A stretch of 46,835 nt of DNA from Patescibacteria group bacterium. GTDB lineage: Bacteria > Patescibacteriota > Minisyncoccia > UBA6257 > 02-FULL-45-10c. How positions within the stretch are numbered: the first letter of the stretch is position 1; each line of letters opens with the position of its first letter. The notes beneath the pieces are model-generated. The model saw nothing but the letters and a program-made list of their open reading frames with translations, ran no database searches and was not told where the DNA came from. This document shows positions 5,318 to 33,572 of this stretch, piece after piece. A program made the translations under genes and the position numbers. The DNA lies in the NCBI GenBank assembly GCA_028865335.1, contig JAGWKK010000001.1, positions 1-46,835 on the forward strand, given 5' to 3'.

Positions 5318-5437
5318 GGGTGACTAGTTCCCGCCTGTGGCGAGGCTCGCCCATAGGGCGGCAGTGGTAGAACGCTGTCCTGATAAGACAGACCTGCCTG
5401 CCGGCAGGCAGGGGTCATAGGTTCGATCCTATTCCAT
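5318..5437 (+). pseudogene. decayed copy of tRNA-Ile(GAT) carrying two insertions
   Basis: gggtgactagtt...cagtggtagaacgctgtcctgataagacaga matches the intact tRNA at 5502, apart from a 32-nt hairpin insert (5330-5362) in the D stem and the 20-nt palindrome (5393-5412) after the anticodon stem. The T arm (ataggttcgatcctat) has a 1-nt shorter loop. The 3' acceptor strand is missing (ccatttt does not pair with gggtgac). Confidence 0.65.
5393..5412. repeat. 20-nt perfect palindrome CCTGCCTGCCGGCAGGCAGG, copy 1
   Basis: Exact self-complementary 20-mer. The corresponding position in intact tRNA-Ile (between 5544 and 5545) lacks it. Confidence 0.9.
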
Positions 5438-5501
5438 TTTTACGACAACGCGTCTAGAGTTAATATCAGGGTAGGGGTCGAGGTTCGATTCCTTTTAAAT
5501 C

Positions 5502-5573
5502 GGGTGACTAGTTCAGTGGTAGAACGCTGTCCTGATAAGACAGAGGTCGCAGGTTCGATTCCTGCGTCACCCA
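5502..5573 (+). tRNA. tRNA-Ile (anticodon GAT)
   Basis: Manual cloverleaf: acceptor gggtgac/gtcaccc, D stem gttc/gaac, anticodon stem ctgtc/gacag with loop ctGATaa, T arm gcagg-ttcgatt-cctgc, discriminator A. CCA is not encoded. Confidence 0.9.
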
Positions 5574-5580
5574 CAAATAT

Positions 5581-5607
5581 AAAAAACCGGACTTGTTCCG
5601 GTTTTTT
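5581..5607. terminator. rho-independent terminator, bidirectional shape
   Basis: aaaaaaccgga-cttgt-tccggtttttt: a 5-bp GC stem flanked by an A6 run and a T6 run. Confidence 0.7.
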
Positions 5608-5610
5608 ATA

Positions 5611-5761
5611 TTTTGCGCAGGAATCGAACCAGCCGCACCCCATATCAGGAAGGAATGGGAAACCGCAGGTGTCCCAGAAGGGGGTCGGGGTGCGGCGTGG
5701 TTCGAGTGAGCGAGCGGGCTATCCAGCCGCGAGTGAAACTTTCATTCCTGCGTCACCCACA
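5611..5761 (+). repeat. structured module bounded by inverted and direct copies of the tRNA-Ile 3' end
   Basis: 5615-5630 gcgcaggaatcgaacc is the reverse complement of the tRNA T arm (15/16 match). 5744-5761 attcctgcgtcacccaca repeats tRNA positions 5558-5575 exactly (18 nt). Inside, cgaaccagccgcacccc pairs with ggggtgcggcgtggttcg. A gggaaacc...gtccc hairpin is homologous to the module at 33436-33572. Confidence 0.7.
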
Positions 5762-5772
5762 GAAATGACGAT

Positions 5773-5801
5773 TTGACTTATAGCATATAATATGCTATAT
5801 T
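5773..5801 (+). promoter_or_regulatory. sigma70-type promoter of the orphan gene 5871..6359
   Basis: TTGACT (5773-5778), 17-nt spacer, TATATT (5796-5801). Confidence 0.6.
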
Positions 5802-5870
5802 CTACTCAGCAGTACATCACGGGCAACCGTGAAATCCTGGATGCCGAAAGGCACATGAAGGGAGGAAGTC

Positions 5871-6359
5871 ATGACGAACGAGAACGAGAAGGTCGTCAAC
5901 GGGCACCGCGTCAAGACGGGCGAGCCCGGCGAGAACGGGACGAAGTCCAACGAGCGGCACATCCTCAGGCAGATCCACGAGAAGCGCAAGCAGGACAAGC
6001 TGCAGCTCGTGAAGGTCAACGAGGCCGCGCGGGCGCTCCGGTCGCCGGCGGACCAGATGGCCGTCTTGGACGACCGGCTCGGCGAGGGCATGGGCGCGAA
6101 CAAGGAGCGGCTGCGTCTCGAGATCGCGAGGGCGGAGCTGAGCCTGAAGGGGCTCGACGGCCGCAAGGGTTCGATGGACCCTTCGTACCTCAAGAGGGAG
6201 ACCGCGTACCTCCAGGACTTCATCCGGCGCCGCAAGGCGGAGCTCGAGAAGGTCAAGCTGGAGAACCGCGGCTACCGCGAGATGCGGAAGTTCGGCCTCC
6301 GTCCGCGCGAGCACGCGTACGAGGAGATGCCGGCGACGGCCCTCGCCCAGGTCGCCTAA
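5871..6359 (+). CDS. hypothetical protein (162 aa, K/E/R-rich), orphan cassette C1
   Basis: Strong SD gaagggaggaagtc before the ATG. It has its own promoter and terminator. The segment is GC-rich, so three other long ORFs overlap it on both strands. This frame was chosen because of the SD and a plausible composition. Confidence 0.55.
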   Translation: MTNENEKVVNGHRVKTGEPGENGTKSNERHILRQIHEKRKQDKLQLVKVNEAARALRSPADQMAVLDDRLGEGMGANKERLRLEIARAELSLKGLDGRKGSMDPSYLKRETAYLQDFIRRRKAELEKVKLENRGYREMRKFGLRPREHAYEEMPATALAQVA

Positions 6360-6375
6360 GCAGTAAGGTTTTCCG

Positions 6376-6410
6376 GCCGGTTTTTCCTTAAAAACCGGCT
6401 TTTGTTTTTT
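6376..6410 (+). terminator. rho-independent terminator
   Basis: gccggttttt-cctt-aaaaaccggc (10-bp stem) followed by ttttgtttttt. Confidence 0.75.
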
Positions 6411-6464
6411 CATGTTGCCGAAAATATCCTTTTTTGATAAGCTGGATACAGGTTTTTCAAGCAT

Positions 6465-6565
6465 GCGCGTTTAGCCCCTGCCTTCGGTAGACAGGCCTGC
6501 CTGCCGGCAGGCAGGTCAGTAGGTAGAGCGGTCGCCGACGGCGACAGGTCGGAGAAAGGTTCTTT
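6465..6565 (+). pseudogene. decayed copy of tRNA-Val(GAC) with 40 nt of palindromic units in the D arm
   Basis: gcgcgtttagc + [6476-6515 insert] + tcagtaggtagagcg parallels gcgcccttagctcagtggtagagcg of the intact tRNA at 6584. An anticodon-like gtcg-ccGACgg-cgac follows. The T arm is degenerate and there is no 3' acceptor strand. Confidence 0.55.
6476..6515. repeat. tandem pair of palindromic units: degenerate unit (6476-6495) then perfect unit (6496-6515), copy 2
   Basis: 6496-6515 is exactly cctgcctgccggcaggcagg. 6476-6495 ccctgccttcggtagacagg resembles the variant at 11431. Confidence 0.85.
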
Positions 6566-6583
6566 TTATAGATAATAATGTTT

Positions 6584-6658
6584 GCGCCCTTAGCTCAGTG
6601 GTAGAGCGTTTCATTGACATTGAAAAGGTCGGAAGTTCGATCCTTCCAGGGCGCACCA
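6584..6658 (+). tRNA. tRNA-Val (anticodon GAC), CCA encoded
   Basis: Acceptor gcgccct/agggcgc, D stem gctc/gagc, anticodon stem tttca/tgaaa with loop ttGACat, T arm ggaag-ttcgatc-cttcc, then ACCA. Confidence 0.9.
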
Positions 6659-6685
6659 ATAACAAATAAAAATATAAAAGAATAT

Positions 6686-6714
6686 TTGACTTTCGTCTGA
6701 TATTTTCTTAAGCT
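6686..6714 (+). promoter_or_regulatory. sigma70-type promoter of orphan gene 6749..7009
   Basis: TTGACT (6686-6691), 17-nt spacer, TAAGCT (6709-6714). Confidence 0.45.
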
Positions 6715-6748
6715 AGCCCCAGGACATCGTTTCCAAAAAGGAGGGTGT

Positions 6749-7009
6749 ATGGCGGATATGCCGGATGATACCTGGCGAGATGGCTATGTGCACTATGCAG
6801 TTGAGTGTTATCAGTCTTCTCCGGACGCAGGCATGGCATGCGGGATCCGACTCTCAACATGGGCGACTCCTGAGCGAATGGCTTCCTGGCCAAAGCAAAA
6901 GACCAGCCCCAATTCAGAAACCGACCTCGGCTATACCTGGGCCAAGAAGAGAGTGACGTGTCCGAAGTGCCGTTCTGAGATCGAAAAGAACAAGTACCGC
7001 GGTCCCTAA
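6749..7009 (+). CDS. hypothetical protein (86 aa) with C-terminal CPKC motif, orphan cassette C2
   Basis: SD aaaggaggg 5 nt before the ATG. It has its own promoter, and its terminator overlaps the stop codon. Confidence 0.5.
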   Translation: MADMPDDTWRDGYVHYAVECYQSSPDAGMACGIRLSTWATPERMASWPKQKTSPNSETDLGYTWAKKRVTCPKCRSEIEKNKYRGP

Positions 7010-7024
7010 AGGGGCCGCTTTTTG
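6999..7024 (+). terminator. rho-independent terminator
   Basis: gcggtccc-taaa-ggggccgc followed by ttttt. Confidence 0.65.
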
Positions 7025-7064
7025 TTTGTTGCTATTAGTTTGAAAATGAAGCAAAATATATTTA

Positions 7065-7652
7065 ATGATGGACTCCCAACACGAAATGAAGGACGAAGAG
7101 GTTCTGCGGAAGGCGATGGAAGATCCGTCGTATTTTTCGCTGCTCGTCGACCGGTATGAGGACGCTTTTCTGCGGAAGGCGATGGGCGTCGTGCATAACC
7201 GGGAAGAATCCGAAGACATCGTCCAGGAGACGTTCACAAAGATCTACCGCTACGCGGGGAATTTCAAGAAACAGAAAGGGATAGAATTCAAAAGCTGGGC
7301 GTACAAGATCCTGATGAACACGTCGTTCACGCATTATCAGAAGCTGAAAAAGAGCAATGCGAATACGGAATATCTGGATCCGGTGCTGTATGAGGACAAA
7401 CCGGAGGAGGGAGGGCAGGATTTCGCGGTCATGCACGACGCGCGGCAGGCGGTGAACGAAGTGATCACGCAGATGCCGGAATATTTCGCCCGGGTGCTGA
7501 AGTTATATTATCTGGAAGACAAGTCCTATGCGGATATCTGCAAGACCGAGAAGATATCGCTGCCGACCCTGAAGATGCGCTTGTTCCGTGCCAAGCGGCT
7601 GTTCGAAAAATTAAGCGCGGAAACCGAAAATCAACATGGAAACACCCACTAA
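7065..7652 (+). CDS. RNA polymerase sigma factor, ECF (sigma-24) family
   Basis: 195 aa. Region 2 motif EDIVQETFTKIYRY...SWAYKILMN. Region 4 LYYLEDKSYADICKTEKISLPTLKMRLFRAKRLF. Confidence 0.85.
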   Translation: MMDSQHEMKDEEVLRKAMEDPSYFSLLVDRYEDAFLRKAMGVVHNREESEDIVQETFTKIYRYAGNFKKQKGIEFKSWAYKILMNTSFTHYQKLKKSNANTEYLDPVLYEDKPEEGGQDFAVMHDARQAVNEVITQMPEYFARVLKLYYLEDKSYADICKTEKISLPTLKMRLFRAKRLFEKLSAETENQHGNTH

Positions 7653-8004
7653 CCCGACCCTGCGCCAGTTTCTGAAGAACCGTATCTTATGGAAGGTCTA
7701 TACGATGTGGTTTTTGCGCCGCATCGTTCCGTTGATCGTCCTGCAGGTCGCGGCGATCGCGCTGGCCTTGCAGATTTTCGCGAAGAACGTGTTTGTGAGC
7801 ATGGTATTCAGGAACGCCGCCGTCGCTTCGGAACAGGGATACTGGGCGTTTCTCGGATATCTCTGGTACGCCTTTTTGAATACCCGTCCGCTCGTGCAGG
7901 TTACTGTCCTGGTGATCCTGGGCGTCGTGGCGTTGCTGATCCGGGACGTTGTCCGCATGGTCATGACGTATGCCACTCTGAAGGTCCGGGGTGACCGGGG
8001 GTAG
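7636..8004 (+). CDS. multi-pass membrane protein, possible anti-sigma partner
   Basis: 122 aa. It overlaps the sigma gene by 17 nt (translational coupling) and has hydrophobic helices. The anti-sigma role is inferred only from position. Confidence 0.5.
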   Translation: METPTNPTLRQFLKNRILWKVYTMWFLRRIVPLIVLQVAAIALALQIFAKNVFVSMVFRNAAVASEQGYWAFLGYLWYAFLNTRPLVQVTVLVILGVVALLIRDVVRMVMTYATLKVRGDRG

Positions 8005-8025
8005 GGTAACTGGCCTGCGGCCAAA

Positions 8026-8047
8026 TTCCTAATTACTAATAACTAAT
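8026..8047. repeat. degenerate heptamer array ttcctaa-ttactaa-taactaa
   Basis: 7-nt periodicity directly after the 7636..8004 stop. It is related to the tcctaat array at 31054-31090. Confidence 0.5.
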
Positions 8048-8056
8048 GTCGGGTGG

Positions 8057-8075
8057 CTAGTGACGGGGTGAAACC
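8057..8075 (+). repeat. repeat motif ctagtgacggggtgaaacc, copy a
   Basis: Identical 19-mer at 8222-8240. Reverse-complement copy at 20733-20751 with one mismatch. Confidence 0.8.
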
Positions 8076-8200
8076 CCGCACTGAGCCGAGCGCTTCGTTT
8101 TTCACACCGCTTCAGAAAAGCCCCGCGTTAGTGCCAGGCTGTTGCTTCTGCAAATCAAGCTGATAGGAGAAGAAAAACGGCAATGCGGTGCGGCGCTCGA

Positions 8201-8220
8201 CCTGCCTGCCGGCAGGCAGG
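8201..8220. repeat. 20-nt perfect palindrome, copy 3 (24-nt palindrome with flanks, 8199-8222)
   Basis: cggcgctcga|cctgcctgccggcaggcagg|tctagtgac. The paralogous sequence at 20733-20762 (reverse complement cggcgctcga|tctggtgac) lacks exactly these 20 nt. Confidence 0.9.
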
Positions 8221-8221
8221 T

Positions 8222-8240
8222 CTAGTGACGGGGTGAAACC
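8222..8240 (+). repeat. repeat motif ctagtgacggggtgaaacc, copy b
   Basis: See 8057-8075. Confidence 0.8.
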
Positions 8241-8379
8241 TTTCTGCTTAGTATCCAGTTACACTTAATAGATCCAGCGATTTTAGAGTAGACTGTCGGT
8301 GCTTCGACCGGTATCGACTACCTCATAGATACTCTAAAGTTTCCAGATCTCTATTTTACAGTTAGTTCATATCTTTCTT

Positions 8380-8401
8380 AAAAGCCCCGTCGGGGGCTTT
8401 T
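8380..8401. terminator. bidirectional rho-independent terminator, serves the minus-strand DUF4012 gene
   Basis: aaaagcccc-gtcg-ggggctttt. Confidence 0.75.
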
Positions 8402-8407
8402 AAGTAT

Positions 8408-10477
8408 CTATTGTTTCACGAGAGTGGCGGTGACGGTTTCACGGGCGGCGAGCTGTTCGGTGTCGTAGGTAAAAGTTGGCGACCCCGACTCTTTCCATTG
8501 GTACCCCGGCGGTGCGATGAGGGTATATTCCAGCGATCCGTCCACGCCGGATTGTTTTTCGAATACGAAGGTGTAGGTCATGCCGTCATGGATCGGAAGC
8601 GGGTTGCCGCTTTGGTATTGCACGGTGAGCGTCCGGGTCTTTTGCGGATCGGTAGTCAGCCACGCGCCGAATGATATCTTGTTCCATTCGGATCCGACGA
8701 GCGTCTGCATCGGCCGGTTAAGCGTTTCGGACGATTCGATGCGCGCGAGGTCGGGATCGATACTCAATTCCGGTGCCGGCGGAACCGGCGTGCGCGCCGC
8801 ATCATTGCCGGTCAGCGCCAGAAGCTTTGAGCCGGGCGGCGTGAGTATCGTTATGAAATCCTTGTTCGGAACCAGGTAATACCAGTCGGTCTGATTCGTG
8901 TCCTGGAAGTCGCGGGTGACCGCGAGCTGGTCGATGACATTGCCGTCCGCGTCGATCGTGCTGGTGAGCGCGACGTGCTGGTTGATCAGTGCGTCGGTTT
9001 TTCCGCCGGCAACATTGGCGTTCACGACGGCCAGGTAATCTCCGGTGAAGTCGTCGGGCAGTGCGTAGACGCTACCGGCCACATCGGCGGTATTGAGGAA
9101 TTCCTGCAGACGACTATCGCTCGCATAGGCCATGATGTCTTTGGTTTTCACGTGATCAGCGAGCGTTGCGACGAGCTGCGATTTTTGATCCGCGGTGAGC
9201 GTGTGGAGTTTCTGCATCAGAAGCGGCATCAGGACGGAAAGGATCTTTTTCGGATTCTGTCCCGGTTTCTTGTCGGGACCCAGCTCCACTTCGTGCTGGA
9301 GTTCGGGCAGGAAATTCTGTTCGGTGATGGTCAGGTTGTAATCGGGAAGATCGATCGGTCCGGTGATGCCGAGAATGGATTGGAGGACGTTGGTGTTGAT
9401 GCCGACGACGGCGCTGAAGAATATATGCGTCGGCTGATAGAGATTGGAGTCCTGGAGCAGGGACGCCACCTTTTTCGCCGAGGTCGGGAAATCGAAGAAC
9501 CAGTTCGCGTCGCGGGCGCCCCAGGTCGGCGTGATACCGCTGAGCTGTTCCGGCGGAGCGATCTTGAGATCGAGCTGACGGTCGGCGTTATAGATGTCAT
9601 CGACATTGATGGCGGTGATGTTGCCCTGATTGAGCACGACGTCGCCGTAACTTCCCAGGAATCCGCCCGCCGGGCGGATCTCGGTCGGGTTCTGGAAGAG
9701 GACGAGGATGTGCTGGTCGCCGGGGGCGGTCAGGAGCGTCCGGAGTCCGGCGATGCCCGAGCTTGCGGCGGCGAAATCAGGTTCGATGCGATTGTATTCC
9801 TGCGAGACGAGCTTTGCGGCGGATGCGAGCGGGCCGTTGCTCAATGCGATTCCTGATGCCTCGGCCGCGAGGTTGTCGGCGATCAGCTTCGCCGAAGAGA
9901 CGTTGTTGTCGATGCGCGTCACGGCTGCGACCAGTTCGTCGCCATGGCCCGAGGTCGCAAGTCCGAGCGCGTTGTTTTTAAGGAAATCCACATCTTTTGA
10001 AATGTCAGCTGCTTTCTGGTTGAGCGCTGCGCCCTGCGCGACTGCGTCGGGAAGCATGCCGGCGCCCGGAATGAAGGCGTTTGCGATGCCGGTCAGCAGG
10101 GATATGCCGGGTGCGTGCGCTTGCCGGTCCAGCGCGGTGAAGTCGGCGGAGAGTGATTGGAGCTCGGTACTGAGGTTGCCGGTATTCAGGGTCGTCGCCG
10201 CGGTTTTGAGTCCCGGCAGCTGTGCCTTGATGCGGGCGATGATAGCCAGGGCATTATGGGCGAAAAAGAAAAGCGAAAAGAAAATGAAAGAAACGCCTGC
10301 CGCGATGCCGATGGTGACCGGTTGGATGCGGGTCGGGGTATTCGGTTTCCGGTGAAGTACGCGCTCATGCTCCCGGGCCGCTTCCGCGCGCTTGAGTTCG
10401 GGCGCATAGCGCTTGCGGGGGAGCGGCTTGTGCACGTCGCGCATGGTTTTTCGGGGCTGGGGTGTCGGCTGATGCAT
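8408..10477 (-). CDS. DUF4012 domain-containing membrane-anchored protein
   Basis: 689 aa with an N-terminal TM helix. The motif FQNPTEIRPAGGFLGSYGDVVLNQGNI is, from memory, characteristic of the DUF4012 family that is common in CPR genomes. Confidence 0.75.
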   Translation of the reverse strand: MHQPTPQPRKTMRDVHKPLPRKRYAPELKRAEAAREHERVLHRKPNTPTRIQPVTIGIAAGVSFIFFSLFFFAHNALAIIARIKAQLPGLKTAATTLNTGNLSTELQSLSADFTALDRQAHAPGISLLTGIANAFIPGAGMLPDAVAQGAALNQKAADISKDVDFLKNNALGLATSGHGDELVAAVTRIDNNVSSAKLIADNLAAEASGIALSNGPLASAAKLVSQEYNRIEPDFAAASSGIAGLRTLLTAPGDQHILVLFQNPTEIRPAGGFLGSYGDVVLNQGNITAINVDDIYNADRQLDLKIAPPEQLSGITPTWGARDANWFFDFPTSAKKVASLLQDSNLYQPTHIFFSAVVGINTNVLQSILGITGPIDLPDYNLTITEQNFLPELQHEVELGPDKKPGQNPKKILSVLMPLLMQKLHTLTADQKSQLVATLADHVKTKDIMAYASDSRLQEFLNTADVAGSVYALPDDFTGDYLAVVNANVAGGKTDALINQHVALTSTIDADGNVIDQLAVTRDFQDTNQTDWYYLVPNKDFITILTPPGSKLLALTGNDAARTPVPPAPELSIDPDLARIESSETLNRPMQTLVGSEWNKISFGAWLTTDPQKTRTLTVQYQSGNPLPIHDGMTYTFVFEKQSGVDGSLEYTLIAPPGYQWKESGSPTFTYDTEQLAARETVTATLVKQ

Positions 10478-11430: not shown

Positions 11431-11450
11431 CCTGCCTATCGGTAGGTAAA
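11431..11450. repeat. degenerate palindromic unit cctgcctatcggtaggtaaa
   Basis: Shares cctgcct..cggtag with the degenerate unit at 6476-6495. It lies between the stop codon and the terminator. The relationship is tentative. Confidence 0.4.
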
Positions 11451-11557: not shown

Positions 11558-11884
11558 ATGATCGCTGAAGCAATCTTGCCGAAAATCAAGCCGGGAGCCA
11601 TGGTGAAGGTTTTCGAAAAAGTGAAAGAAGGGGATAAGGAGCGCCTGTCGCAATTTTCCGGCCTGGTTTTGGCGCGGAAGCACGGATCCGAGACCGGAGC
11701 GTCCTTTACGGTCCGCTCGACGATCGCGGGTGTGAGCGTGGAGAAGGTATATCCGATCCATTCGCCGGTGATCGAGAAAGTTGAAGTGCTCAGCGCGCCG
11801 AAGAAGGTGCATCGCTCAAAACTGTACTATGTCCGCGAGCTGTCCCGTAAGCAGACCCGCCAGAAGATCGGAACGGTGAAGTAG
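11558..11884 (+). CDS. rplS: 50S ribosomal protein L19
   Basis: MIAEAILPKIKPGAMVKVFEKVKEGDKERLSQFSGLVLARKHG...KVYPIHSPVIEKVEVL. Trimmed from ORF 11471. TTGACC-17-TATACT (11519-11547) lies just upstream of ATG 11558. Confidence 0.9.
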   Translation: MIAEAILPKIKPGAMVKVFEKVKEGDKERLSQFSGLVLARKHGSETGASFTVRSTIAGVSVEKVYPIHSPVIEKVEVLSAPKKVHRSKLYYVRELSRKQTRQKIGTVK

Positions 11885-11974
11885 CGCATCGCATACAGCA
11901 AGAAGTGAACAGCTCCCTCGGGAGCTGTTTACTTTTCATGATTCTTTGGTCTACAATAGTGAAAGCAGTATTTG

Positions 11975-12035
11975 CAATGCGCAGGTGGCGAAACTGGCAG
12001 ACCTGCCTGCCGGCAGGCAGGCGCACTACCTGAGG
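11975..12035 (+). pseudogene. duplicated 5' half of tRNA-Leu (through the anticodon loop), interrupted by the 20-nt palindrome
   Basis: caatgcgcaggtggcgaaactggcaga[20-nt palindrome]cgcactacc-tgagg, compared with caatgcgcaggtggcgaaactggcagacgcactaccttgagg at 12289-12330. There is no 3' half. Confidence 0.8.
12002..12021. repeat. 20-nt perfect palindrome, copy 4
   Basis: Exact cctgcctgccggcaggcagg. The intact tRNA-Leu lacks it between 12315 and 12316. Confidence 0.9.
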
Positions 12036-12046
12036 CGACAGAATAT

Positions 12047-12328
12047 ATGTATTCTGATTACGTTCTCAAAAGTATCAAGCGCTCTTATTTGTATGTCGGA
12101 ATGACGAATAATATTAATCGTCGTTTTTTTCAACACCAGTATGGCCGCGAAAAAACTACCGCGCCCTATCGACCATTTAAACTGCTCATTGTTGAAAAAT
12201 ATGATACGCGTAAATCGGCACGAGTTCGTGAAAAGTATCTAAAATCAGGAGTTGGCAAAGAGTGGATAAAGAGGTATGATTTTGAGCACAATGCGCAGGT
12301 GGCGAAACTGGCAGACGCACTACCTTGA
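12047..12328 (+). CDS. small stand-alone GIY-YIG (URI-domain) nuclease family protein, 93 aa
   Basis: MYSDYVLKSIKRSYLYVGMTNNINRRFFQHQYG...PFKLLIVEKYDTRKSARVREKYLKSGVG fits the GIY..YIG..R..H..G...E pattern. The start was trimmed to the first ATG after the tRNA fragment. The last 12 codons and the stop lie inside the tRNA-Leu gene. The gene looks AT-richer than its neighbours by eye. Confidence 0.75.
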   Translation: MYSDYVLKSIKRSYLYVGMTNNINRRFFQHQYGREKTTAPYRPFKLLIVEKYDTRKSARVREKYLKSGVGKEWIKRYDFEHNAQVAKLADALP

Positions 12329-12376
12329 GGTGGTAGCGCCCGCAAGGGCTTGGAGGTTCGAATCCTCTCCTGCGCA
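12293..12376 (+). tRNA. tRNA-Leu (anticodon GAG), type II with a long variable arm
   Basis: Acceptor gcgcagg/cctgcgc, anticodon stem ctacc/ggtag with loop ttGAGgt, variable arm cgcccgcaagggct, T arm ggagg-ttcgaat-cctct, discriminator A. Confidence 0.9.
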
Positions 12377-12466
12377 CAAAGTATAAATGACCGAAGTCCG
12401 TCCGGTTGTGCAATTCATGGGCTTTATCAGAAACGAGCAGGAAAAAGGCTGATTGGGTCGCATGTT

Positions 12467-20651: not shown

Positions 20652-20732
20652 AGGGTCCGCCCGGGCGAGTATGGTATACTAAAGGTATTATCGGTTATAA
20701 TCACTATTATGCATAAAAAAGGATCTAAATCG

Positions 20733-20762
20733 GGTTTCACCCCGTCACCAGATCGAGCGCCG
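20733..20762 (-). repeat. repeat motif copy c with the adjoining cggcgctcga segment (empty site for the palindrome)
   Basis: The reverse complement cggcgctcgatctggtgacggggtgaaacc equals 8191-8240 minus the 20-nt palindrome, with one mismatch. Confidence 0.8.
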
Positions 20763-20818
20763 AAACGCCCCCTCGATGTCGACGATAGTAATCCTTTCGA
20801 GTAATAATTATATATTTT

Positions 20819-21301
20819 ATGACAAAACAATCATTACGAGATAAGCGTTTAAAAAATCGCAGCGCTCGGCTCGGTGCGGGGTTCACCCTTATTGAAGTTC
20901 TCGTCGTCGTTTCCATCATCGGCTTGCTTTCAGCCATCATCCTGGTCGGCTTGAGCGGATTCCGCGCGCGCGGCCGCGACACCCGGCGCATCGCCGATCT
21001 GAAGCAGGTCCAGAACGGCCTTGAGCTTTTCTATGCGAAGAACGGCAACTATCCGGCGTCCCTGAGCGACATGCTGACTGCGAATATCGGCGTCACCCAG
21101 CTGCCGAAGGATCCGTCCACGACGCAGGATTATTTCTACAGCTACCAGACATCCGACAAGCAGGGATATGTTCTTGCCGCGAAACTGGATGCAAGCAGCG
21201 GCGACGCCATCTTCAATGACAGTGCGACTTCGGTTACCATCGGGAACTACACGGGATCGGTGACCAGCTGTGCCCAGCCCTACTACTGCGTTACGTTTTA
21301 A
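20819..21301 (+). CDS. pilA: type IV pilin (prepilin-type N-terminal cleavage/methylation domain), likely major pilin
   Basis: 160 aa. Class III signal ...RLGAG|FTLIEVLVVVSIIGLLSAIIL with Glu+5. Confidence 0.85.
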   Translation: MTKQSLRDKRLKNRSARLGAGFTLIEVLVVVSIIGLLSAIILVGLSGFRARGRDTRRIADLKQVQNGLELFYAKNGNYPASLSDMLTANIGVTQLPKDPSTTQDYFYSYQTSDKQGYVLAAKLDASSGDAIFNDSATSVTIGNYTGSVTSCAQPYYCVTF

Positions 21302-23268: not shown

Positions 23269-24147
23269 ATGTATATAGAATCCTATAAGAAATTCATTGT
23301 CTGGCAGAGGTCAATGGAGTTGGCGAAAGAAATCTATGGCGTTACTGAAAAATTACCCGGGCACGAGCTATATGCTTTTGTGTCCCAAATGCGCCGCGCC
23401 GCAATATCCATACCGTCCAACATTGCCGAGGGATACAAAAGAAGCGGTATCGGAGAATTCCTGCATTTTTTGAGCATTGCCGATGCTTCGGCGGCTGAGC
23501 TGGAAACGCAACTGCTCTTGGTGAAGGATATATACCGTAAAATTGATTTTACGAAGTGCGAGGAATTGCTCCTGGAAGTTCAAAAGATGCTCATCGTAAT
23601 GATAAAGAAATTGAGAGATAAGAAGTCGCTCAACGCTCAACGCTTAACGCTTAACGCTCGAAAAGGTTTCACCTTAGTCGAGCTTTTGGTGACCATGACG
23701 TTATTCCTGGTGGTCGTAAGCATCGCCACGAGCGTATTCATCAGCACGCTCCGCACGCAGCGGGAAACTGTCGCGCTGATTGCGGCGAACAGCAATGCGT
23801 CGCTGACGCTGGAACAGATGTCGCGTGAAATTCGCACCGGCACCGGCTTTGTCATGAAAGGGTCCGATCTCGCATTCACGAACGCGAAAAGCGAAAGCGT
23901 GGAATATCATCTGGATTCCGGAACCCATACGCTGCAGCGCAGTACTGACGGGGGAGCGACGTTCCTGCCGCTGACCGCGGATAATGTTAGCGTGCAGCGG
24001 GCGACGTTCCGTCTGTGGAACGGCGATCCGGCGGTGCCGTATCCGCCGCGCATCACAATCGCGCTGGGCGTCGGGGCTGTCGGCGTTCCGTTTACGACTT
24101 CAGTCGCGAACCTGGAGGTGTCGGTCAGCGCGCGGTCATTGCAGTAA
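23269..24147 (+). CDS. in-frame fusion: four-helix-bundle protein (23S rRNA intervening-sequence protein family) joined to a PilW-like minor pilin
   Basis: 292 aa. Residues 1-115 (FIVWQRSMELAKEIY...QMRRAAISIPSNIAEGYKRSGIGEFLHFLSIADASAAELETQLLL) fit the TIGR02436-type four-helix-bundle family, from memory. Residues about 131 onward (KG|FTLVELLVTMTLFLVVVSIA) are a class III pilin signal. No stop codon separates the two parts. Confidence 0.7.
   Translation: MYIESYKKFIVWQRSMELAKEIYGVTEKLPGHELYAFVSQMRRAAISIPSNIAEGYKRSGIGEFLHFLSIADASAAELETQLLLVKDIYRKIDFTKCEELLLEVQKMLIVMIKKLRDKKSLNAQRLTLNARKGFTLVELLVTMTLFLVVVSIATSVFISTLRTQRETVALIAANSNASLTLEQMSREIRTGTGFVMKGSDLAFTNAKSESVEYHLDSGTHTLQRSTDGGATFLPLTADNVSVQRATFRLWNGDPAVPYPPRITIALGVGAVGVPFTTSVANLEVSVSARSLQ
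23631..23658. repeat. heptamer array caacgct-caacgct-taacgct-taacgct (4 x 7 nt) inside the CDS at the fusion junction
   Basis: Perfect 7-nt periodicity. TAA triplets are out of frame in the current register. Confidence 0.85.
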
Positions 24148-29229: not shown

Positions 29230-29265
29230 CGCCTACGCAGACAGCATCGCGTAGGCGTCTTTTTA
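29230..29265 (+). terminator. rho-independent terminator
   Basis: cgcctacgc-(10-nt loop)-gcgtaggcg followed by tcttttt. Confidence 0.7.
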
Positions 29266-29360
29266 TTTCTTCTCCATAAGGAGAAGAAATTATCCTCCAT
29301 AGCTCAGCCGATAGGGACTGAGCGACGGCGGATTTCATTGCGTTATAATCCCCTTATAGT

Positions 29361-29389
29361 TTGACACCGAAATGGATATATGATATATT
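29361..29389 (+). promoter_or_regulatory. consensus sigma70-type promoter of 29495..30058
   Basis: TTGACA (29361-66), 17-nt spacer, TATATT (29384-89). Confidence 0.65.
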
Positions 29390-29395
29390 ACCTCC

Positions 29396-29494
29396 AACCA
29401 TCGAGGGTCACGAGATCCCGATGTTTGTACCTTGAGTACCCTTACTCGCGGATAGCGGGGAAGGATGTTCGGCGACTAGCCGAAGGGGTGTGTC
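29396..29494 (+). promoter_or_regulatory. structured 5' leader, second copy of the motif at 10713-10831
   Basis: Stem 1 is catcg (29399-403) with cgatg (29419-23). Stem 2 is ctcgc (29445-49) with gcggg (29455-59). Stem 3 is ttcggc (29468-73) with gccgaa (29479-84) and overlaps the SD gaagggg. Confidence 0.55.
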
Positions 29495-30058
29495 ATGGGT
29501 CAGGTCAATGCGTTGAAGGACTTCAAGCGCGGGCAGTTGGATGCCGCGCTGATGAAGATCGGTCAGGAGGCGGGGCTAGGAACCGCTGAAGGAATCAAGG
29601 CTCTTCTCCGCGGTGAGCTCGTCGTGAGGACGCTGGCGAGGTCTTTCAAGCATGACAAGACCTTGGTCGGCTGGAGTCTTCTTATCCCTGGTCCGAAGGT
29701 CGAAGAAGATTTCAGACCCGGCATTGTGGAGTTCCTCGATGGCGAAAATTCCATTTGCGACGAGGAGCTGAGGAAGCGGGCTCGGAATTTGGGAGCGAAT
29801 CTGGGCCAGGCCCACGCCGAGTATCTTCTGGAACGCCAGAACCGGATTCCGTGGGAGTACCGGGGGGATGACCTGGTTTTTCCGGCAACGGTTTGGAATC
29901 CGTCGGGCGGCGACCGTTACACCTCTGATTGCTACAGCCCGATCCTCGTTTGGAACGGTAGTTTTTGGGATTTGGGCTTTAATCGACTCGGGAACGGCTG
30001 GAATCATCACGCCCGCCTGGTCAAGGCTATGCAGCCTTTTCGTCGGAAGGCGAAATAA
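29495..30058 (+). CDS. hypothetical protein (187 aa), orphan cassette C6
   Basis: Its N-terminal segment is similar to 10832..11419, and it shares that gene's leader and terminator style. The C-terminal domain differs (W/G-rich ...VWNPSGGDRY...VWNGSFWDLGFNRLGNGWNHHARLV). Confidence 0.6.
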   Translation: MGQVNALKDFKRGQLDAALMKIGQEAGLGTAEGIKALLRGELVVRTLARSFKHDKTLVGWSLLIPGPKVEEDFRPGIVEFLDGENSICDEELRKRARNLGANLGQAHAEYLLERQNRIPWEYRGDDLVFPATVWNPSGGDRYTSDCYSPILVWNGSFWDLGFNRLGNGWNHHARLVKAMQPFRRKAK

Positions 30059-30065
30059 TCAACTC

Positions 30066-30119
30066 CCGGATCCCCTCAAGGAAGAGAAATCTTTCTTGGA
30101 GGGATCCGGCCCCTTTTTA
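30066..30119 (+). terminator. long-stem rho-independent terminator
   Basis: ccggatcccctcaaggaag-agaaat-cttccttggagggatccgg-type hairpin with 19 paired positions (1 mismatch, some G-U), then cccctttttat. Confidence 0.7.
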
Positions 30120-30190
30120 TTTCATGAGTAAATATTGGAATTATTCGTAAAGATTGAAAGACTCCTTTTCGTATTTGGTATACTCATTAT

Positions 30191-30715
30191 ATGGATGGAA
30201 GAATCATTATAAATATTTCCGGCAAATCAACATCTGGCAAAACGACTTTAATGAGAGAATTGGCGTCAAGGAATATTGGCTGGTATTCACTTTTTCGGGA
30301 TAGGGTGAAAAAACAGTTTTCAGGATACAGCAGGGAACGTGATCGAGAAGTTATAGAGAAGGTGGTATTCGGGTTTTATTGCGTGCTTTGCGAAAAAGGA
30401 CTTCCTATCCTACTTGATGCGTCTATTGATACGAGAGATGCCTATTCAGAGTATTTAAAAGTTGCAGAAAAGAATCATTATAAATTTTTATCGATCAATC
30501 TTGATATTCCTCAAGGCGTGGCGCTTAAAAGGTTTCGCGAAAGAGTGAGGAGGGCAAAGGATCAAGGTGATAAGATTTCAGTAACGGACGAAGACACTTT
30601 TTTAAGGAATCAAAATAAAGAGCACTTCTATCCCTCTGACGCGCTTAGCTTTGACACATCCAGGTTAACTGTAGAAGAAATTGCCAGTGATATTATGGAT
30701 AAGATTGTTTTATAG
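30191..30715 (+). CDS. P-loop NTPase/kinase (AAA_33 / zeta-toxin-like fold), 174 aa
   Basis: Walker A GKSTSGKTT and Walker B-like ILLDAS. Conspicuously AT-rich compared with its neighbours, by eye. TATACT at 30179-84 lies 6 nt before the ATG. Confidence 0.6.
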   Translation: MDGRIIINISGKSTSGKTTLMRELASRNIGWYSLFRDRVKKQFSGYSRERDREVIEKVVFGFYCVLCEKGLPILLDASIDTRDAYSEYLKVAEKNHYKFLSINLDIPQGVALKRFRERVRRAKDQGDKISVTDEDTFLRNQNKEHFYPSDALSFDTSRLTVEEIASDIMDKIVL

Positions 30716-30770
30716 ACAAGCGGTTATTTTGCCCCTTTTTTTATATTCAGATTCGCTTTATAATTTGCAT

Positions 30771-31052
30771 ATGCTTTCAAAGAAAGAACTTGAACACCTC
30801 GCGGAACTTGCGCGCATTGAACTGAAGGAAGGGGAAGAGGAAAAGCTTGAGAAAGACCTCGGGGCCATTTTGGATTACTTCAAGGAACTGCAGGCGGTGG
30901 ATACGGAGAAGGTTGCGCCCATGACCGGCGGTACGCAGCTGATGAACGCGCTGCGTGAAGATGTGACGGGATCGACCGATGATACCGGCAAAGGCGCCGC
31001 GGGTTTTCCGGACAAACAGGACGGCTACCTGAAAGTACCTCCTGTCTTCTAA
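30771..31052 (+). CDS. gatC: Asp/Glu-tRNA amidotransferase subunit C
   Basis: 93 aa from ATG 30771: MLSKKELEHLAELARIELKEGEEEKLEKDLGAILDYFKELQAVDT. TATAAT at 30759-64 lies 6 nt before the ATG. ORF 30681 would overlap the previous gene. Confidence 0.85.
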   Translation: MLSKKELEHLAELARIELKEGEEEKLEKDLGAILDYFKELQAVDTEKVAPMTGGTQLMNALREDVTGSTDDTGKGAAGFPDKQDGYLKVPPVF

Positions 31053-31053
31053 T

Positions 31054-31090
31054 TTCCAATTCCTAATTCCTAATTCCTAATTCCTAATTC
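31054..31090. repeat. heptamer tandem array (tcctaat x4 perfect, with degenerate flanking units)
   Basis: ttccaat tcctaat tcctaat tcctaat tcctaat tcacac fills the whole gatC-gatA spacer and gives TAA in all three frames. Confidence 0.9.
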
Positions 31091-31096
31091 ACACCC

Positions 31097-32560
31097 ATGT
31101 CATCTCCATTACACTTTCTCACGCTGAAGCGTTTCCACGAAGGACTTCTGAACAAGGAATTCTCCGCGCTCGAAATGGCGCAGGAGCATTTCACATACAT
31201 CGAATCCCGGGATCCGGAGATCGGGGCGTATCTGGCACTCCATCGCGATGAGGCGATGCGGCAGGCGGAGGCGGCCGATCTTGCGGTTGCGCAGGATAAG
31301 GAGATGAGCGCATTGGCCGGAGCTCCGCTCGCGATCAAGGACAACATCCTGATCGAGGGGACGCGGACGACATCAGCCGCGCAGATTCTCAAGGACTATA
31401 TCGCGAACTATGACGCATCGGTGATCACGAAGCTGAAAAAAGCAGGCGCGGTGTTTCTGGGGAAGACGAACATGGACGAATTCGCGATGGGTTCTTCCAC
31501 CGAGAATTCTTCGTTCCAGAAAACGAAAAACCCGCATAGCACTGCGCATGTCCCCGGAGGTTCCTCCGGCGGTTCAGCTGCGGCGGTCGCGGCGCATATG
31601 GCGGTCGCGTCATTGGGGTCCGATACCGGCGGTTCCATCCGCCAGCCGGCGGCATTCTGCGGCGTCGTGGGCTTGAAGCCGACGTACGGTTCGGTATCGC
31701 GTTCAGGCCTGATGGCGATGGCGTCCAGTTTGGATCAGATCGGTCCGTTCGCGAAAACCGTCGAGGATGCGGCGATTCTGTACAATGAAATCAAAGGATA
31801 CGATCCCTTGGACGCGACCAGCGATCCGCGGGCGGATGCTGATGTATCAAAAGCATTGCTCAATCCGACATTGGGCCAGATCAAGAAATTACGCGTCGGC
31901 ATTCCGGAGGAATATTTCATCGACGGCCTTGATCCGCGCGTCCGGACGAAAGTGGAAGAGGCGATCGGGGTTCTGAAGAGTCTCGGCGTCGAGGTGAAAC
32001 CGGTAAGCCTGCCGCACACCAAGTACGCGCTCTCCTGCTATTACATCGTCATGCCGGCGGAAGTCAGCTCGAACCTGGAACGGTTCGACGGAATCCGATA
32101 TGGGACGCGTCATCCCGCGGACACTTTGCTGGAACTCTATAAGAAAGACCGCGAATCAGGATTCGGTCCTGAAACGAAACGCCGCATCCTGCTCGGCACC
32201 TTCGTGCTCTCGTCCGGCTACTATGATGCGTATTACGCGAAGGCGCAGAAGGTGCGTCGGCTGATCGCGCAGGATTTCGATGAAGCGTTCAAACAGGTTG
32301 ATGTATTGGTGACGCCGGTGACTCCGACGCCCGCATTCAGGATCGGGGAGAAGATGAGCGATCCGCTTTCCATGTATCTTTCGGATATCTTCACGATTCC
32401 GGTGAATCTTGCCGGTCTGCCGGCGGTGTCCATTCCGGCGAAAGGATTCGTGGACGCGGACGGCGCGTCATTGCCGGTCGGATTCCAACTGATCGGCCGG
32501 AGGTGGGGCGAGGCGGATATTCTGGGACTCGGACAATATTACGAAAAGGCGGTACAATAG
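31097..32560 (+). CDS. gatA: Asp/Glu-tRNA amidotransferase subunit A
   Basis: 487 aa. Amidase signature GGSSGGSAAAVAA...GSDTGGSIRQPA. Confidence 0.95.
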   Translation: MSSPLHFLTLKRFHEGLLNKEFSALEMAQEHFTYIESRDPEIGAYLALHRDEAMRQAEAADLAVAQDKEMSALAGAPLAIKDNILIEGTRTTSAAQILKDYIANYDASVITKLKKAGAVFLGKTNMDEFAMGSSTENSSFQKTKNPHSTAHVPGGSSGGSAAAVAAHMAVASLGSDTGGSIRQPAAFCGVVGLKPTYGSVSRSGLMAMASSLDQIGPFAKTVEDAAILYNEIKGYDPLDATSDPRADADVSKALLNPTLGQIKKLRVGIPEEYFIDGLDPRVRTKVEEAIGVLKSLGVEVKPVSLPHTKYALSCYYIVMPAEVSSNLERFDGIRYGTRHPADTLLELYKKDRESGFGPETKRRILLGTFVLSSGYYDAYYAKAQKVRRLIAQDFDEAFKQVDVLVTPVTPTPAFRIGEKMSDPLSMYLSDIFTIPVNLAGLPAVSIPAKGFVDADGASLPVGFQLIGRRWGEADILGLGQYYEKAVQ

Positions 32561-32607
32561 GAGTAAAGATATCTTTTGTTTTTATATTTTTACTTTTTAA
32601 TTCTTTC

Positions 32608-33258
32608 ATGGCCGACAAGAAGCCCGCAAAGGGAGGCGGAGGGACGAACAACAGCGCTTTGGAGCTGCTGGTCTTCGGCGCGCTCGCGCTGGTGGTTCTG
32701 ACCTGGCTCAGCAGCTATCTCAAGCTGTTTTTCGACCCGATCGGATTTCTGTTGGGCATCCGGAATTATTTCGCGCCGTGGTTTCTGCATAACATCTGGT
32801 GGGTTGAGGTGGTCTCAGCCCTGATTTCCGCGATTCTCCTGTACAGCACGATTTCCATGATGCGCCGGACGCATTATTCGACGCTGAAGCGGGAGCAGGT
32901 GATGGAGTATCTCGCGAAAGAGAAAGTGCCGCATCATCGGTCGCTCAAGCTGTGGAATCAGATCCGGCGCCGGCTTGATTCTGAAAATCAGAACGATCTC
33001 CGCCTTGCGATCCTGGAGTGCGATCATTTATTGAACGAAATTCTGAAAATGTCCGGTTATCTGGGGCGCATGGACGAAAAGCTCAAGCTTCTCGATCCTT
33101 CCCAGCTTTCCAACATCGAAGACGTGAAGCGCGCCCACGCCTTGCGGGATAAGATCGCGCAGGATCCGACGTACGCGATCACGCAGGAAGAGGCCCGTGC
33201 GGCGGCGGATATTTACGGACAGGCATTCAAGGAATTCAACCTGATCCGCGAGGATTAG
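32608..33258 (+). CDS. membrane hypothetical protein (216 aa)
   Basis: Trimmed from ORF 32503, which overlaps gatA. Two to three TM helices followed by a helical soluble domain. Confidence 0.5.
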   Translation: MADKKPAKGGGGTNNSALELLVFGALALVVLTWLSSYLKLFFDPIGFLLGIRNYFAPWFLHNIWWVEVVSALISAILLYSTISMMRRTHYSTLKREQVMEYLAKEKVPHHRSLKLWNQIRRRLDSENQNDLRLAILECDHLLNEILKMSGYLGRMDEKLKLLDPSQLSNIEDVKRAHALRDKIAQDPTYAITQEEARAAADIYGQAFKEFNLIRED

Positions 33259-33321
33259 ACCGCCGAGCGATTGCGGAAAAAAGAGGTTTCTGATAAATTG
33301 ATACTAGTCATTTTTGACGAT

Positions 33322-33396
33322 GCGGTAGTAGCTTAGCTGGCCTAAAGCGCCTCCCTGTCACGGAGGAGACCGTGGGTTCAAATCCCATCTACCGCG
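33322..33396 (+). tRNA. tRNA-Asp (anticodon GTC)
   Basis: Acceptor gcggtag/ctaccgc, anticodon stem cctcc/ggagg with loop ctGTCac, T arm gtggg-ttcaaat-cccat, discriminator G. Confidence 0.9.
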
Positions 33397-33397
33397 C

Positions 33398-33434
33398 AAA
33401 TTTAAAACACCTCTTTGGGGGTGTTTTAAATTTT
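33398..33434 (+). terminator. rho-independent terminator (14-bp AT-rich stem)
   Basis: aaatttaaaacacc-tctttgg-ggtgttttaaattt. Confidence 0.6.
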
Positions 33435-33435
33435 A

Positions 33436-33572
33436 TGTCCGCGATGGGATTTGAACAGAAGGGGAAGGGGTCGGGAAACGGGAGTTTCCCGTGTCGGAAG
33501 GATTGGGAAAACCGAGCCTGCCTACCGACAGGCAGGGGTTTCCCAGTGTTCTTACTCCCATCTACCGCGCAC
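33436..33572 (+). repeat. structured module bounded by inverted and direct copies of the tRNA-Asp 3' end
   Basis: 33441-33456 gcgatgggatttgaac contains the reverse complement of 14 nt of the T arm. 33556-33571 tcccatctaccgcgca repeats tRNA positions 33383-33398 exactly (16 nt). The interior has gggaaac-ggga-gtttccc and gggaaaacc...ggtttccc hairpins homologous to 5611-5761. The second hairpin's loop carries a palindromic unit. Confidence 0.7.
33517..33536. repeat. palindromic unit variant cctgcctaccgacaggcagg (18/20 match to the perfect unit)
   Basis: Located in the loop between gggaaaaccgag and ggtttccc. Confidence 0.7.

Follow-up and report, generated by a model that had tools for sequence, protein, structure and literature searches.

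The DNA stretch analyzed here, the complete 46,835-nt contig JAGWKK010000001.1 of a Patescibacteria metagenome-assembled genome (MAG; assembly GCA_028865335.1; hereafter the window), contains a perfect palindrome of 20 nt, CCTGCCTGCCGGCAGGCAGG, which we term PAL. Exact copies are present at 5393-5412, 6496-6515, 8201-8220 and 12002-12021, and a copy with two mismatches (18/20; CCTGCCTACCGACAGGCAGG) lies on the plus strand at 33517-33536. The sequence follows the plan (CCTG)2-CCGG-(CAGG)2 and is predicted to fold into an 8-bp stem with a 4-nt loop. The copy at 12002-12021 is part of a compact arrangement on the plus strand that comprises a partial duplicate of tRNA-Leu (11975-12035), a gene for a minimal GIY-YIG nuclease of 93 amino acids (12047-12328) and an intact tRNA-Leu(GAG) (12293-12377), within which the last codons and the stop codon of the nuclease gene are located. 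The duplicate spans tRNA positions -3 to 38 and is identical to the intact gene at 41/41 positions once PAL is removed. PAL interrupts it after tRNA nucleotide 23, at the junction between the D loop and the 3' strand of the D stem and 25 nt 5' of the nuclease start codon. Positions 12036-12292, which separate the partial from the intact tRNA-Leu, hold the GIY-YIG open reading frame (ORF) only and lack a tyrosine or serine recombinase.

Six tRNA genes are encoded in the window and three of them (Ile, Val and Leu) are preceded by a pseudo-copy containing PAL. An earlier reading of the letters without database searches (the sequence-only reading) had pointed to three places where a paralogous sequence in the window lacks exactly the 20 nt. 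Alignments bear out all three pairs, and the coordinates of the four exact copies and of the 18/20 copy are confirmed. In tRNA-Leu, 11975-12001, PAL and 12022-12035 face an uninterrupted 12289-12315 continuing at 12316 (empty site 12315/12316). In tRNA-Ile, 5362-5392, PAL and the sequence from 5413 onwards face 5514-5544 continuing at 5545. The third pair lies in a repeat, where 8187-8200, PAL and 8221-8240 correspond to the minus strand around 20752/20753, PAL being the sole gap within the conserved block. tRNA-Val adds a fourth pair, in which 6465-6475 and 6516-6530 are separated by a 40-nt insert (6476-6515) and face 6584-6594 continuing at 6595. As had been read from the letters, three insertion points follow the dinucleotide GA, every copy resides in tRNA-derived or repeat-derived noncoding DNA, and no target-site duplication is visible at the copies in the window. 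The possibility that PAL acts as an intrinsic terminator, dismissed in that reading, is rejected here as well because none of the five copies of this GC-rich hairpin is followed by a T tract; terminator prediction within 11850-12450 made no call at PAL. The frequency of PAL exceeds the expectation from composition, as 100 dinucleotide-preserving shuffles of the window yielded zero matches at up to three mismatches and the chance expectation is 0 copies.

The palindrome is by no means confined to this contig. A search of one genome per species (596 Gb) with the pattern CCTGCCTNCCGNCAGGCAGG, which specifies 18 bases and leaves two central positions free, returned at least 119 listed stretches, on which the following counts rest and which hold 125 PAL copies. 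Seventy-two of these copies are the exact 20-mer and the remainder mostly differ at the two free central positions; arithmetic with equal base frequencies puts the expectation for 596 Gb at about 0.5 for the exact 20-mer and about 17 for the pattern. Among the Patescibacteria, record titles name Saccharibacteria, WWE3, Parcubacteria, Uhr-, Davies-, Doudna- and Wolfebacteria as carriers, while the Bacteroidota with PAL include cultured Winogradskyella, Olivibacter and Flagellimonas. Further carriers belong to Ignavibacteria, Omnitrophota, Planctomycetota, Nitrospirota, Chloroflexi and several proteobacterial and Bdellovibrio-like groups. PAL also occurs on 35 IMG/VR stretches, among other places between phage structural genes. 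Its flanks are unrelated from genome to genome, and it is rarer in long ORFs than expected, with 24% of the copies inside one versus 75% of random positions. Paralogous pairs that differ by the 20 nt recur in loci L011, L028, L033, L036, L049 and L061 as well as in L065, L066, L083, L108, L140 and L148, and in L022, L029, L068 and L074 one PAL is inserted into the center of another. PAL is a discrete unit that has been inserted many times into unrelated DNA.

The protein encoded next to PAL copy 4 matches the Pfam GIY-YIG family PF01541 with 52.9 bits (cutoff 22.6). The core of its own family is about 78 residues long, and Y5, Y16, G18, R26, H30 and E62 are invariant in an alignment of 30 members (A1), the C-terminal part of which has no conserved Asn. 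AlphaFold predicts a three-stranded sheet with helices (predicted local distance difference test score 95). The nearest proteins of solved structure are the UPF0213 proteins BH0048 and EF2693 and the SLX1 structure-specific endonucleases, followed by I-TevI and UvrC; profile matches have E values of about 1e-8 for 1zg2 and 1ywl, about 1e-6 for SLX1 and 6e-3 for I-TevI, and Foldseek produces the same ranking, with UPF0213 and SLX1 ahead of I-TevI. The nuclease has neither a DNA-binding nor an auxiliary domain. Judged from these comparisons, it would belong to the minimal prokaryotic Slx1/UPF0213 branch and not to the UvrC/homing endonuclease lineage. A survey of the GIY-YIG superfamily published in 2006 describes the prokaryotic Slx1-like proteins as the minimal form and derives the selfish homing and restriction clades from another lineage (PMC1564403).

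The association between gene and palindrome was approached from the side of the gene by a metagenome scan with alignment A1, from which the 80 closest loci were taken, sequences with up to three mismatches being counted as PAL-like. Such a sequence is found near the gene in 70 of the 80 loci (88%), which strongly supports the link to the nearby GIY-YIG nuclease, one of three mechanisms that the sequence-only reading had left open. Where at least 100 nt of upstream sequence are available, it lies no more than 300 nt 5' of the start codon in 57 of 73 loci and typically ends 12-90 nt before it. In 55 of the 80 loci a tRNA gene starts between -40 and +150 nt from the end of the ORF; it is nearly always a tRNA-Leu, with any anticodon, and rarely a tRNA-Arg. 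Searching in the opposite direction, i.e. with a profile around PAL, revealed the same GIY-YIG family within 160 nt in seven of the 119 listed genome loci. The order there, in which a PAL-bearing 5' fragment of a tRNA precedes the GIY-YIG ORF and the intact tRNA comes last, is realized in a member of WWE3 (tRNA-Lys), a Bacteroidetes MAG (tRNA-Arg) and another locus with tRNA-Leu. Named assemblies with this design (type A) are the MAG studied here, a member of the Cyclobacteriaceae (L235, Bacteroidota) and one of the Omnitrophota (L236). About a dozen loci have the mirror arrangement (type B), in which an intact tRNA-Leu and the ORF are followed by a 3' tRNA fragment with PAL, and in L156, L193 and L185 units of fragment, PAL and ORF form tandem arrays. 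PAL is an integral companion of a mini-cassette associated with tRNA-Leu. While the palindrome is conserved to the base across phyla, its partner protein diverges to about 50% identity.

Gene prediction at these loci frequently runs through PAL and so generates spurious N-terminal extensions containing 'LPAGRQA'. A special case is L104 (2751-4892), where PAL and the GIY-YIG domain share one ORF that runs into a type I restriction-modification specificity (Methylase_S) domain; here, the 20 nt of PAL shift the frame such that the upstream reading frame enters the nuclease.

Without PAL, the redundant tRNA fragment is nearly identical to the adjacent tRNA, e.g. at 41/41, 35/35 or 60/60 positions. 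Its start in type A loci is usually near tRNA position +1 but can lie as much as 29 nt further 5', and its end falls at nucleotides 25-41. Within the fragments, the positions of PAL fall into clusters after tRNA nucleotides 11-15 (D-stem 5' strand/D loop), 22-24 (D loop/D-stem 3' strand), 31-32 and 39 (the two ends of the anticodon loop), 43 (in the variable loop), and 64 and 68 (T arm). Some fragments carry two or three PALs. PAL is preceded by a purine at 51 of 52 nuclease loci, compared with 49 of 71 genome loci, and an A rarely follows it directly. When plotted on a neighbor-joining tree of the proteins, the site classes are partly clade-specific, yet interleaved, indicating that inheritance and repeated insertion both contribute.

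Most PALs are distant from tRNA genes, with 14 of the 125 copies on the listed genome stretches lying within 500 nt of a tRNA. Flanking stems of at least 6 bp, which often abut PAL, accompany 8.5% of the solo copies versus 2.8% of controls, and flanking direct repeats of at least 6 nt accompany 11.5% versus 1.4% of control positions. With this modest enrichment, hairpin-loop targeting by solo copies was not upheld as universal. Many solo PALs of Bacteroidota, Ignavibacteria and Planctomycetota lie in degenerate short tandem repeats with direct-repeat flanks of 6-14 nt (L011, L075, L080, L084, L094, L122, L128, L138 and others). A recurrent variant, CCTGCCTGTCGGCAGACAGG, retains a 6-bp hairpin in a shifted register through a two-sided change (C9-G16 to T9-A16). 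Three observations come from viral DNA. On an IMG/VR contig (L144, 2239-2330) a complete tRNA-Met(CAT), accepted by ARAGORN, carries PAL in its variable loop in the manner of a class-II-like long arm. Another IMG/VR contig (L153, 3915-4142) contains at least ten tandem copies of a 21-nt unit, CCATGCCTACCGGCAGGCAGG, up to the stored contig end. Finally, a phage contig (L126, 3829-3950) has two paralogous intergenic sites, one with the 20-nt PAL and one with the 16-nt CCTGCCTGCAGGCAGG, which lacks the central CCGG.

The remaining PAL sites of the window are more complex than the tRNA-Leu locus. The pseudo-tRNA-Ile (5318-5436, plus strand) is identical to the intact tRNA-Ile(GAT) (5502-5574, plus strand; empty site 5544/5545) in its 5' two-thirds, differs in the T arm, lacks a matching 3' strand of the acceptor stem, and carries PAL copy 1 in the variable loop after tRNA nucleotide 43. 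Its D loop contains a second GC hairpin of 31 nt (5331-5361) that is unrelated to PAL. GC hairpins of this CCCGCC...GGCGGG type also occur in D loops of pseudo-tRNAs in L063, L178, L182 and L188, and PAL is thus not the sole hairpin landing there. In the pseudo-tRNA-Val (6465-6553, plus strand), which precedes the intact tRNA-Val(GAC) (6584-6658, plus strand; empty site 6594/6595), the 40-nt insert in the D loop consists of a degenerate variant (6477-6495) followed by exact PAL copy 2, placed after the equivalent of tRNA nucleotide 11, and the whole anticodon arm is exchanged for a 15-nt palindrome, GTCGCCGACGGCGAC (6531-6545). Two further degenerate copies had been suspected from the letters, and they fared differently. 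The first, originally placed at 6476-6495, is probably a genuine PAL variant when delimited as 6477-6495 (CCTGCCTTCGGTAGACAGG), since the same doublet of variant and PAL recurs in L189 and L237; it is one deletion and one mismatch away from the recurrent variant CCTGCCTGTCGGCAGACAGG. The second, at 11431-11450 (CCTGCCTATCGGTAGGTAAA), has four mismatches to a known PAL variant, and its origin as a decayed PAL is only plausible and remains doubtful.

PAL copy 3 is embedded in the repeat 8058-8240, the empty paralogue of which (20730-20890, minus strand) overlaps the 5' end of a pilin gene (20819-21301) where the prepilin leader is encoded; a partial copy of the repeat segment is also situated just 5' of the pilin gene. 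The variant at 33517-33536 sits in a hairpin loop, between gggaaaaccgag and ggtttccc, within a tRNA-derived element (33436-33572) 3' of tRNA-Asp. A related element 3' of tRNA-Ile (5606-5765) lacks PAL at the corresponding hairpin (about 5657-5675). Both are about 150 nt long and consist, in this order, of a terminator, an inverted T-arm copy, a GC-rich body and a repeat, in direct orientation, of the final ~15 nt of the tRNA. An element built alike, with an exact PAL, lies 3' of tRNA-Val in an unrelated genome (L063, 1097-1270), and L236 has another such ~150-nt element after its tRNA-Leu. Rfam gave no match for these elements, and a MAFFT alignment of three of them was too poor to delimit a family.

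Two promoter-like sequences at the cassette are consensus matches, one just 5' of the tRNA-Leu 5' fragment (11928-11957, plus strand) and one of sigma-70 type (TTGGCA-17-TATGAT, 12252-12280) in the conserved region encoding the nuclease C-terminus, 12 nt 5' of tRNA-Leu. By virtue of the latter, the cassette may supply a promoter for the tRNA-Leu it displaced. A second GIY-YIG ORF (36069-36326), located between pheS and the ORF preceding pheT, represents a different clade with about 35% identity to the first. A perfect inverted repeat of 20 nt, ATCCCACACATAACTTACAC and GTGTAAGTTATGTGTGGGAT, encloses it at 36038-36340. The ORF is not accompanied by PAL and looks like another kind of compact nuclease cassette. 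PHROGs, PADLOC and NCBIfam returned nothing for the two GIY-YIG proteins, save for a sub-threshold match of the second to a group I intron endonuclease. The bracketing repeats suggested that PAL might stem from collapsed terminal inverted repeats of its cassette, an idea that is unsupported because ORFs of the PAL clade are without half-site flanks. Otherwise the window contains ordinary chromosomal genes (topA, dprA, rplS, a comF-like gene, type IV pilus genes, ligA, gatA/B, pheS/T, gyrB and nusG). The ORF at 23269-24147 combines, according to Pfam, a '23S rRNA intervening sequence protein' domain with a pilin N-terminal methylation motif and may be two fused genes or one gene inserted in another. 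No transposase or integrase domain was found among the 40 window ORFs scanned, in line with what the sequence-only reading had stated for transposases and recombinases. At gathering score, Rfam covariance models detected the six tRNAs only; a YrlA-like match over the pseudo-tRNA-Val (6452-6561) reached 21 bits, far under the 69-bit threshold. In the literature searched, no description of the PAL/nuclease system was found, including the exact sequence. PAL is not a recognized repeat family, as already suspected. Features that had escaped that first reading are the conservation across phyla, the tRNA-Leu nuclease cassette, the stem/loop junction sites and the second GIY-YIG clade without PAL.

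On balance we lean, with modest confidence, towards the view that PAL is a miniature mobile hairpin element and the cis partner of minimal, selfish GIY-YIG nuclease cassettes. The partnership of palindrome and nuclease gene is a matter of observation; which enzyme moves PAL, and how, we infer, and the enzymology proposed in the following is conditional. The cassette comprises little beyond a ~78-codon Slx1/UPF0213-type GIY-YIG gene lodged against a tRNA gene, usually Leu and occasionally Arg or Lys, and retains the intact tRNA together with a partial duplicate, either a 5' piece upstream (type A, as in 11975-12377) or a 3' piece downstream (type B). PAL is placed precisely at stem/loop junctions of the redundant tRNA copy, without target duplication, and also enters other dispensable intergenic DNA that forms hairpins or is repeated. 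Insertions into a working tRNA are presumably removed by selection, such that copies would survive in dispensable DNA only. The Ile and Val pseudo-tRNAs and the copies at 8201 and 33517 may be landing sites or else relics of cassettes that have lost the ORF.

The nuclease is probably the mobilizer. Its restriction to a catalytic core and the structure specificity of its nearest solved relatives led us to propose that it recognizes the hairpin and cleaves extruded hairpins at their base, where single strand and duplex meet. Cuts at the base would release PAL as an exact 20-nt unit, target hairpins would be opened at the same type of junction, and host ligation or repair would finish the transfer. 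Junction cutting would account for the exact 20-nt unit, the missing target duplication and the junction preference. Solo PALs would be non-autonomous and mobilized in trans, just as REP sequences are by RAYT transposases. A benefit for the cassette is speculative: PAL could break homology and folding of the redundant tRNA piece, or it could cap the nuclease mRNA with a stable hairpin. A variant of the model in which the cassette brings its own piece of tRNA and inserts at a PAL site by circular permutation is disfavored, because the redundant copy matches the resident tRNA at ~100% identity and, in several loci, continues for 10-29 nt into the local 5' flank.

Several points weigh against the mobile-element interpretation. 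The listed genome stretches with PAL show no such gene within the fetched stretch in 112 of 119 cases, and the same is true for 34 of the 35 viral stretches, with four IMG/VR contigs encoding the clade. As PAL positions are clade-specific in part, much of the association with the gene could reflect a single inherited ancestral arrangement. Direct repeats of 6-14 nt flank ~12% of the solo PALs and none of the tRNA sites, a hint of more than one insertion route. PAL resides inside the redundant tRNA copy and not at the edge of the cassette, a location that simple cut-and-paste models do not predict. All empty sites in the window are paralogues and none is an orthologue; close relatives of this MAG were sought for orthologous presence or absence and none were found, and the protein encoded next door at 5871-6356 is an orphan. 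To our knowledge, GIY-YIG enzymes are hydrolytic nucleases, and we know of no strand-transfer or ligation chemistry among them; precise insertion without target duplication would therefore require an unproven host step. The activity of the nuclease on PAL is itself putative.

The main rival, which we regard as unlikely, holds that PAL is a fixed cis part of a GIY-YIG homing cassette and travels with the cassette only, solo copies being relics after loss of the ORF. PAL might then flag the cleavage site of the redundant tRNA copy or interrupt it, block recombination between the copies or stabilize the mRNA. Its presence in 70 of the 80 cassette loci at 12-90 nt from the ORF would be expected on these terms, and so would the partly clade-specific site classes, the tandem arrays that copy PAL together with the ORF (L156, L193, L185), the ORF remnants adjoining PAL in L013 and L063 and the resemblance of the Ile and Val pseudo-tRNAs of the window to cassette relics. 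A fixed part is, however, hard to reconcile with solo PALs in sequence families that are unrelated to tRNA or ORF and have paralogues lacking exactly 20 nt, with PAL nested in PAL, and with positions that vary within the same tRNA. Nor does it explain why PAL is found between structural genes of phages and serves as variable arm in a complete tRNA-Met of a phage, or why an ORF remnant is absent from 112 of the 119 listed genome stretches.

Somewhat less probable still is that another enzyme or a host process moves PAL, be it an HUH-type transposase acting on hairpins or replication template switching at palindromes, with the redundant tRNA copies beside GIY-YIG genes serving as neutral DNA in which insertions persist. 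Most PAL copies have no GIY-YIG gene nearby, and other GC hairpins have settled in the same kind of D loop (window 5331-5361, L063, L178, L182, L188). Furthermore, the absence of target duplications next to hairpins is the hallmark of single-strand HUH transposition as carried out by IS200/IS605 and REP/RAYT. On the other hand, an HUH-type or similar enzyme was not found among the 40 window ORFs, and the second GIY-YIG cassette of the window, which belongs to another clade, is free of PAL. Neutrality by itself, which applies just as well to other pseudo-tRNAs and to intergenic DNA, hardly accounts for the 88% association seen from the gene side.

We consider it very improbable that PAL acts at the level of RNA, as an extra arm or intron-like insert of tRNA-like transcripts comparable to the non-canonical tRNA introns of archaea. 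The insertion points do coincide with loops where tRNAs tolerate extra structure, the tRNA-Met of L144 is complete with PAL as a long variable arm, and one variant has a compensatory change. The copies beside the nuclease, however, are truncated and unable to form tRNAs, most PALs are far from tRNAs (14/125 within 500 nt), and no bacterial splicing enzyme is implicated. Moreover, when oriented by the direction of transcription, the A8 and T13 variants are similarly frequent, leaving no visible G-U bias. Chance or an assembly or adapter artefact can practically be dismissed: the PAL-like tandem array ending a contig (L153) could reflect trouble in repeat assembly, but zero copies are expected by chance in the window, PAL is shared by genomes of isolates (Winogradskyella, Olivibacter, Flagellimonas) and by assemblies produced in many projects, and its positions are biologically coherent.

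A more far-reaching version of the mobile-element interpretation, which we put forward tentatively and consider rather less probable than not, is that PAL and the ~78-residue Slx1-like GIY-YIG protein constitute a previously unrecognized class of transposable element, a 'hairpin transposon'. The bare, structure-specific nuclease would excise the 20-nt hairpin at its base and, for its reinsertion, open the arms of tRNA genes, REP-like stems and PAL itself where stem and loop meet, while its gene would ride tRNA-Leu across at least seven phyla and phages. If this is true, a gene of ~240 nt and an element of 20 nt would form the smallest autonomous/non-autonomous mobile pair of bacteria known to us, and a selfish role would be assigned for the first time to prokaryotic Slx1-like GIY-YIG proteins, so far treated as repair factors of unknown function. 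It would also account for a class of enigmatic pseudo-tRNAs and tRNA fragments by which the annotation of tRNAs is confounded in Patescibacteria, Bacteroidota and other phyla, and provide a tractable model for the spread of GC-rich palindromes such as the mitochondrial GC clusters. A nuclease recognizing a defined 20-bp hairpin could, moreover, serve as a tool.

Comparison with established systems reveals partial similarities. The nuclease gene adjoins a tRNA, nearly always Leu, in 55 of the 80 loci, as a free-standing homing endonuclease gene might; the empty sites of the window are paralogous. Free-standing GIY-YIG homing endonucleases share the selfish logic and are expected to spread via breaks and repair, and I-TevI cuts ~23-25 nt upstream of its own insertion site, similar to the distance between PAL and the ORF. 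T4 SegB resides in a tRNA gene cluster (PMC2330249), and the likeness ends with a GIY-YIG gene beside tRNA genes. The Seg and Tev enzymes possess DNA-binding domains and stem from the UvrC/homing endonuclease lineage, whereas the PAL nuclease is a bare core of the Slx1 lineage, which is not among the selfish clades of the 2006 survey (PMC1564403); unlike the PAL cassette, they are not known to be accompanied by a palindrome or by a partly duplicated target gene. Where an integrase-borne island or a prophage occupies a tRNA gene, the insert is likewise flanked by one complete and one partial tRNA (bioRxiv 10.1101/2022.07.05.498093), but the PAL cassette lacks an integrase, its insert amounts to ~0.3 kb, and its partial copy is usually 5' and interrupted by PAL.

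Archaeal non-canonical tRNA introns are also small inserts in the D, anticodon, variable and T loops of tRNAs, but they are spliced from functional tRNAs via bulge-helix-bulge motifs. The palindromic elements of Rickettsia share the tolerated insertion into RNA genes and differ by their length of 100-150 bp and their restriction to one lineage. In the mitochondria of Neurospora, PstI palindromes flank tRNA genes, and the 16-nt form CCTGCCTGCAGGCAGG from one phage PAL locus, which has a PstI core, recalls them. Yeast mitochondrial GC clusters are short GC-rich palindromic mobile units, too (PMC4478555). Like PAL, these mitochondrial units occur near tRNA genes, nested and in genomes rich in GIY-YIG genes; they differ in being organellar, in their unrelated sequences and in having no dedicated enzyme assigned, and the GC clusters come with short target duplications. 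The 'peel and paste' elements of the IS200/IS605 family share the missing target duplication and the use of hairpins as recognition elements, but they employ an HUH transposase, insert 3' of a fixed tetra- or pentanucleotide and are hundreds of bases long.

The closest system in behavior is that of the repetitive extragenic palindromic sequences (REPs), including the bacterial interspersed mosaic elements, with their REP-associated tyrosine transposases (RAYT, TnpA-REP). In both cases many solo short GC-rich extragenic palindromes coexist with a single-copy nuclease gene that adjoins the palindrome or is flanked by it, and the units fold into hairpins when single-stranded, are mostly intergenic and are presumed to be mobilized in trans. 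Nevertheless, both defining features fail. RAYT is an HUH/Y1 enzyme, a domain not found among the 40 window ORFs scanned, whereas the partner of PAL is a GIY-YIG core of ~78 residues; REPs are imperfect, ~20-40 nt long, species-specific and headed by GTAG or GTGG, whereas PAL is a perfect 20-mer that starts with CCTG and is identical across phyla. In addition, REP systems are not known to be tied to tRNA genes or partial tRNA duplicates. PAL and its nuclease thus form a system of the 'palindromic repeat plus dedicated nuclease' kind that is so far undescribed in the literature searched, and there is a real chance that they represent a new class of element.

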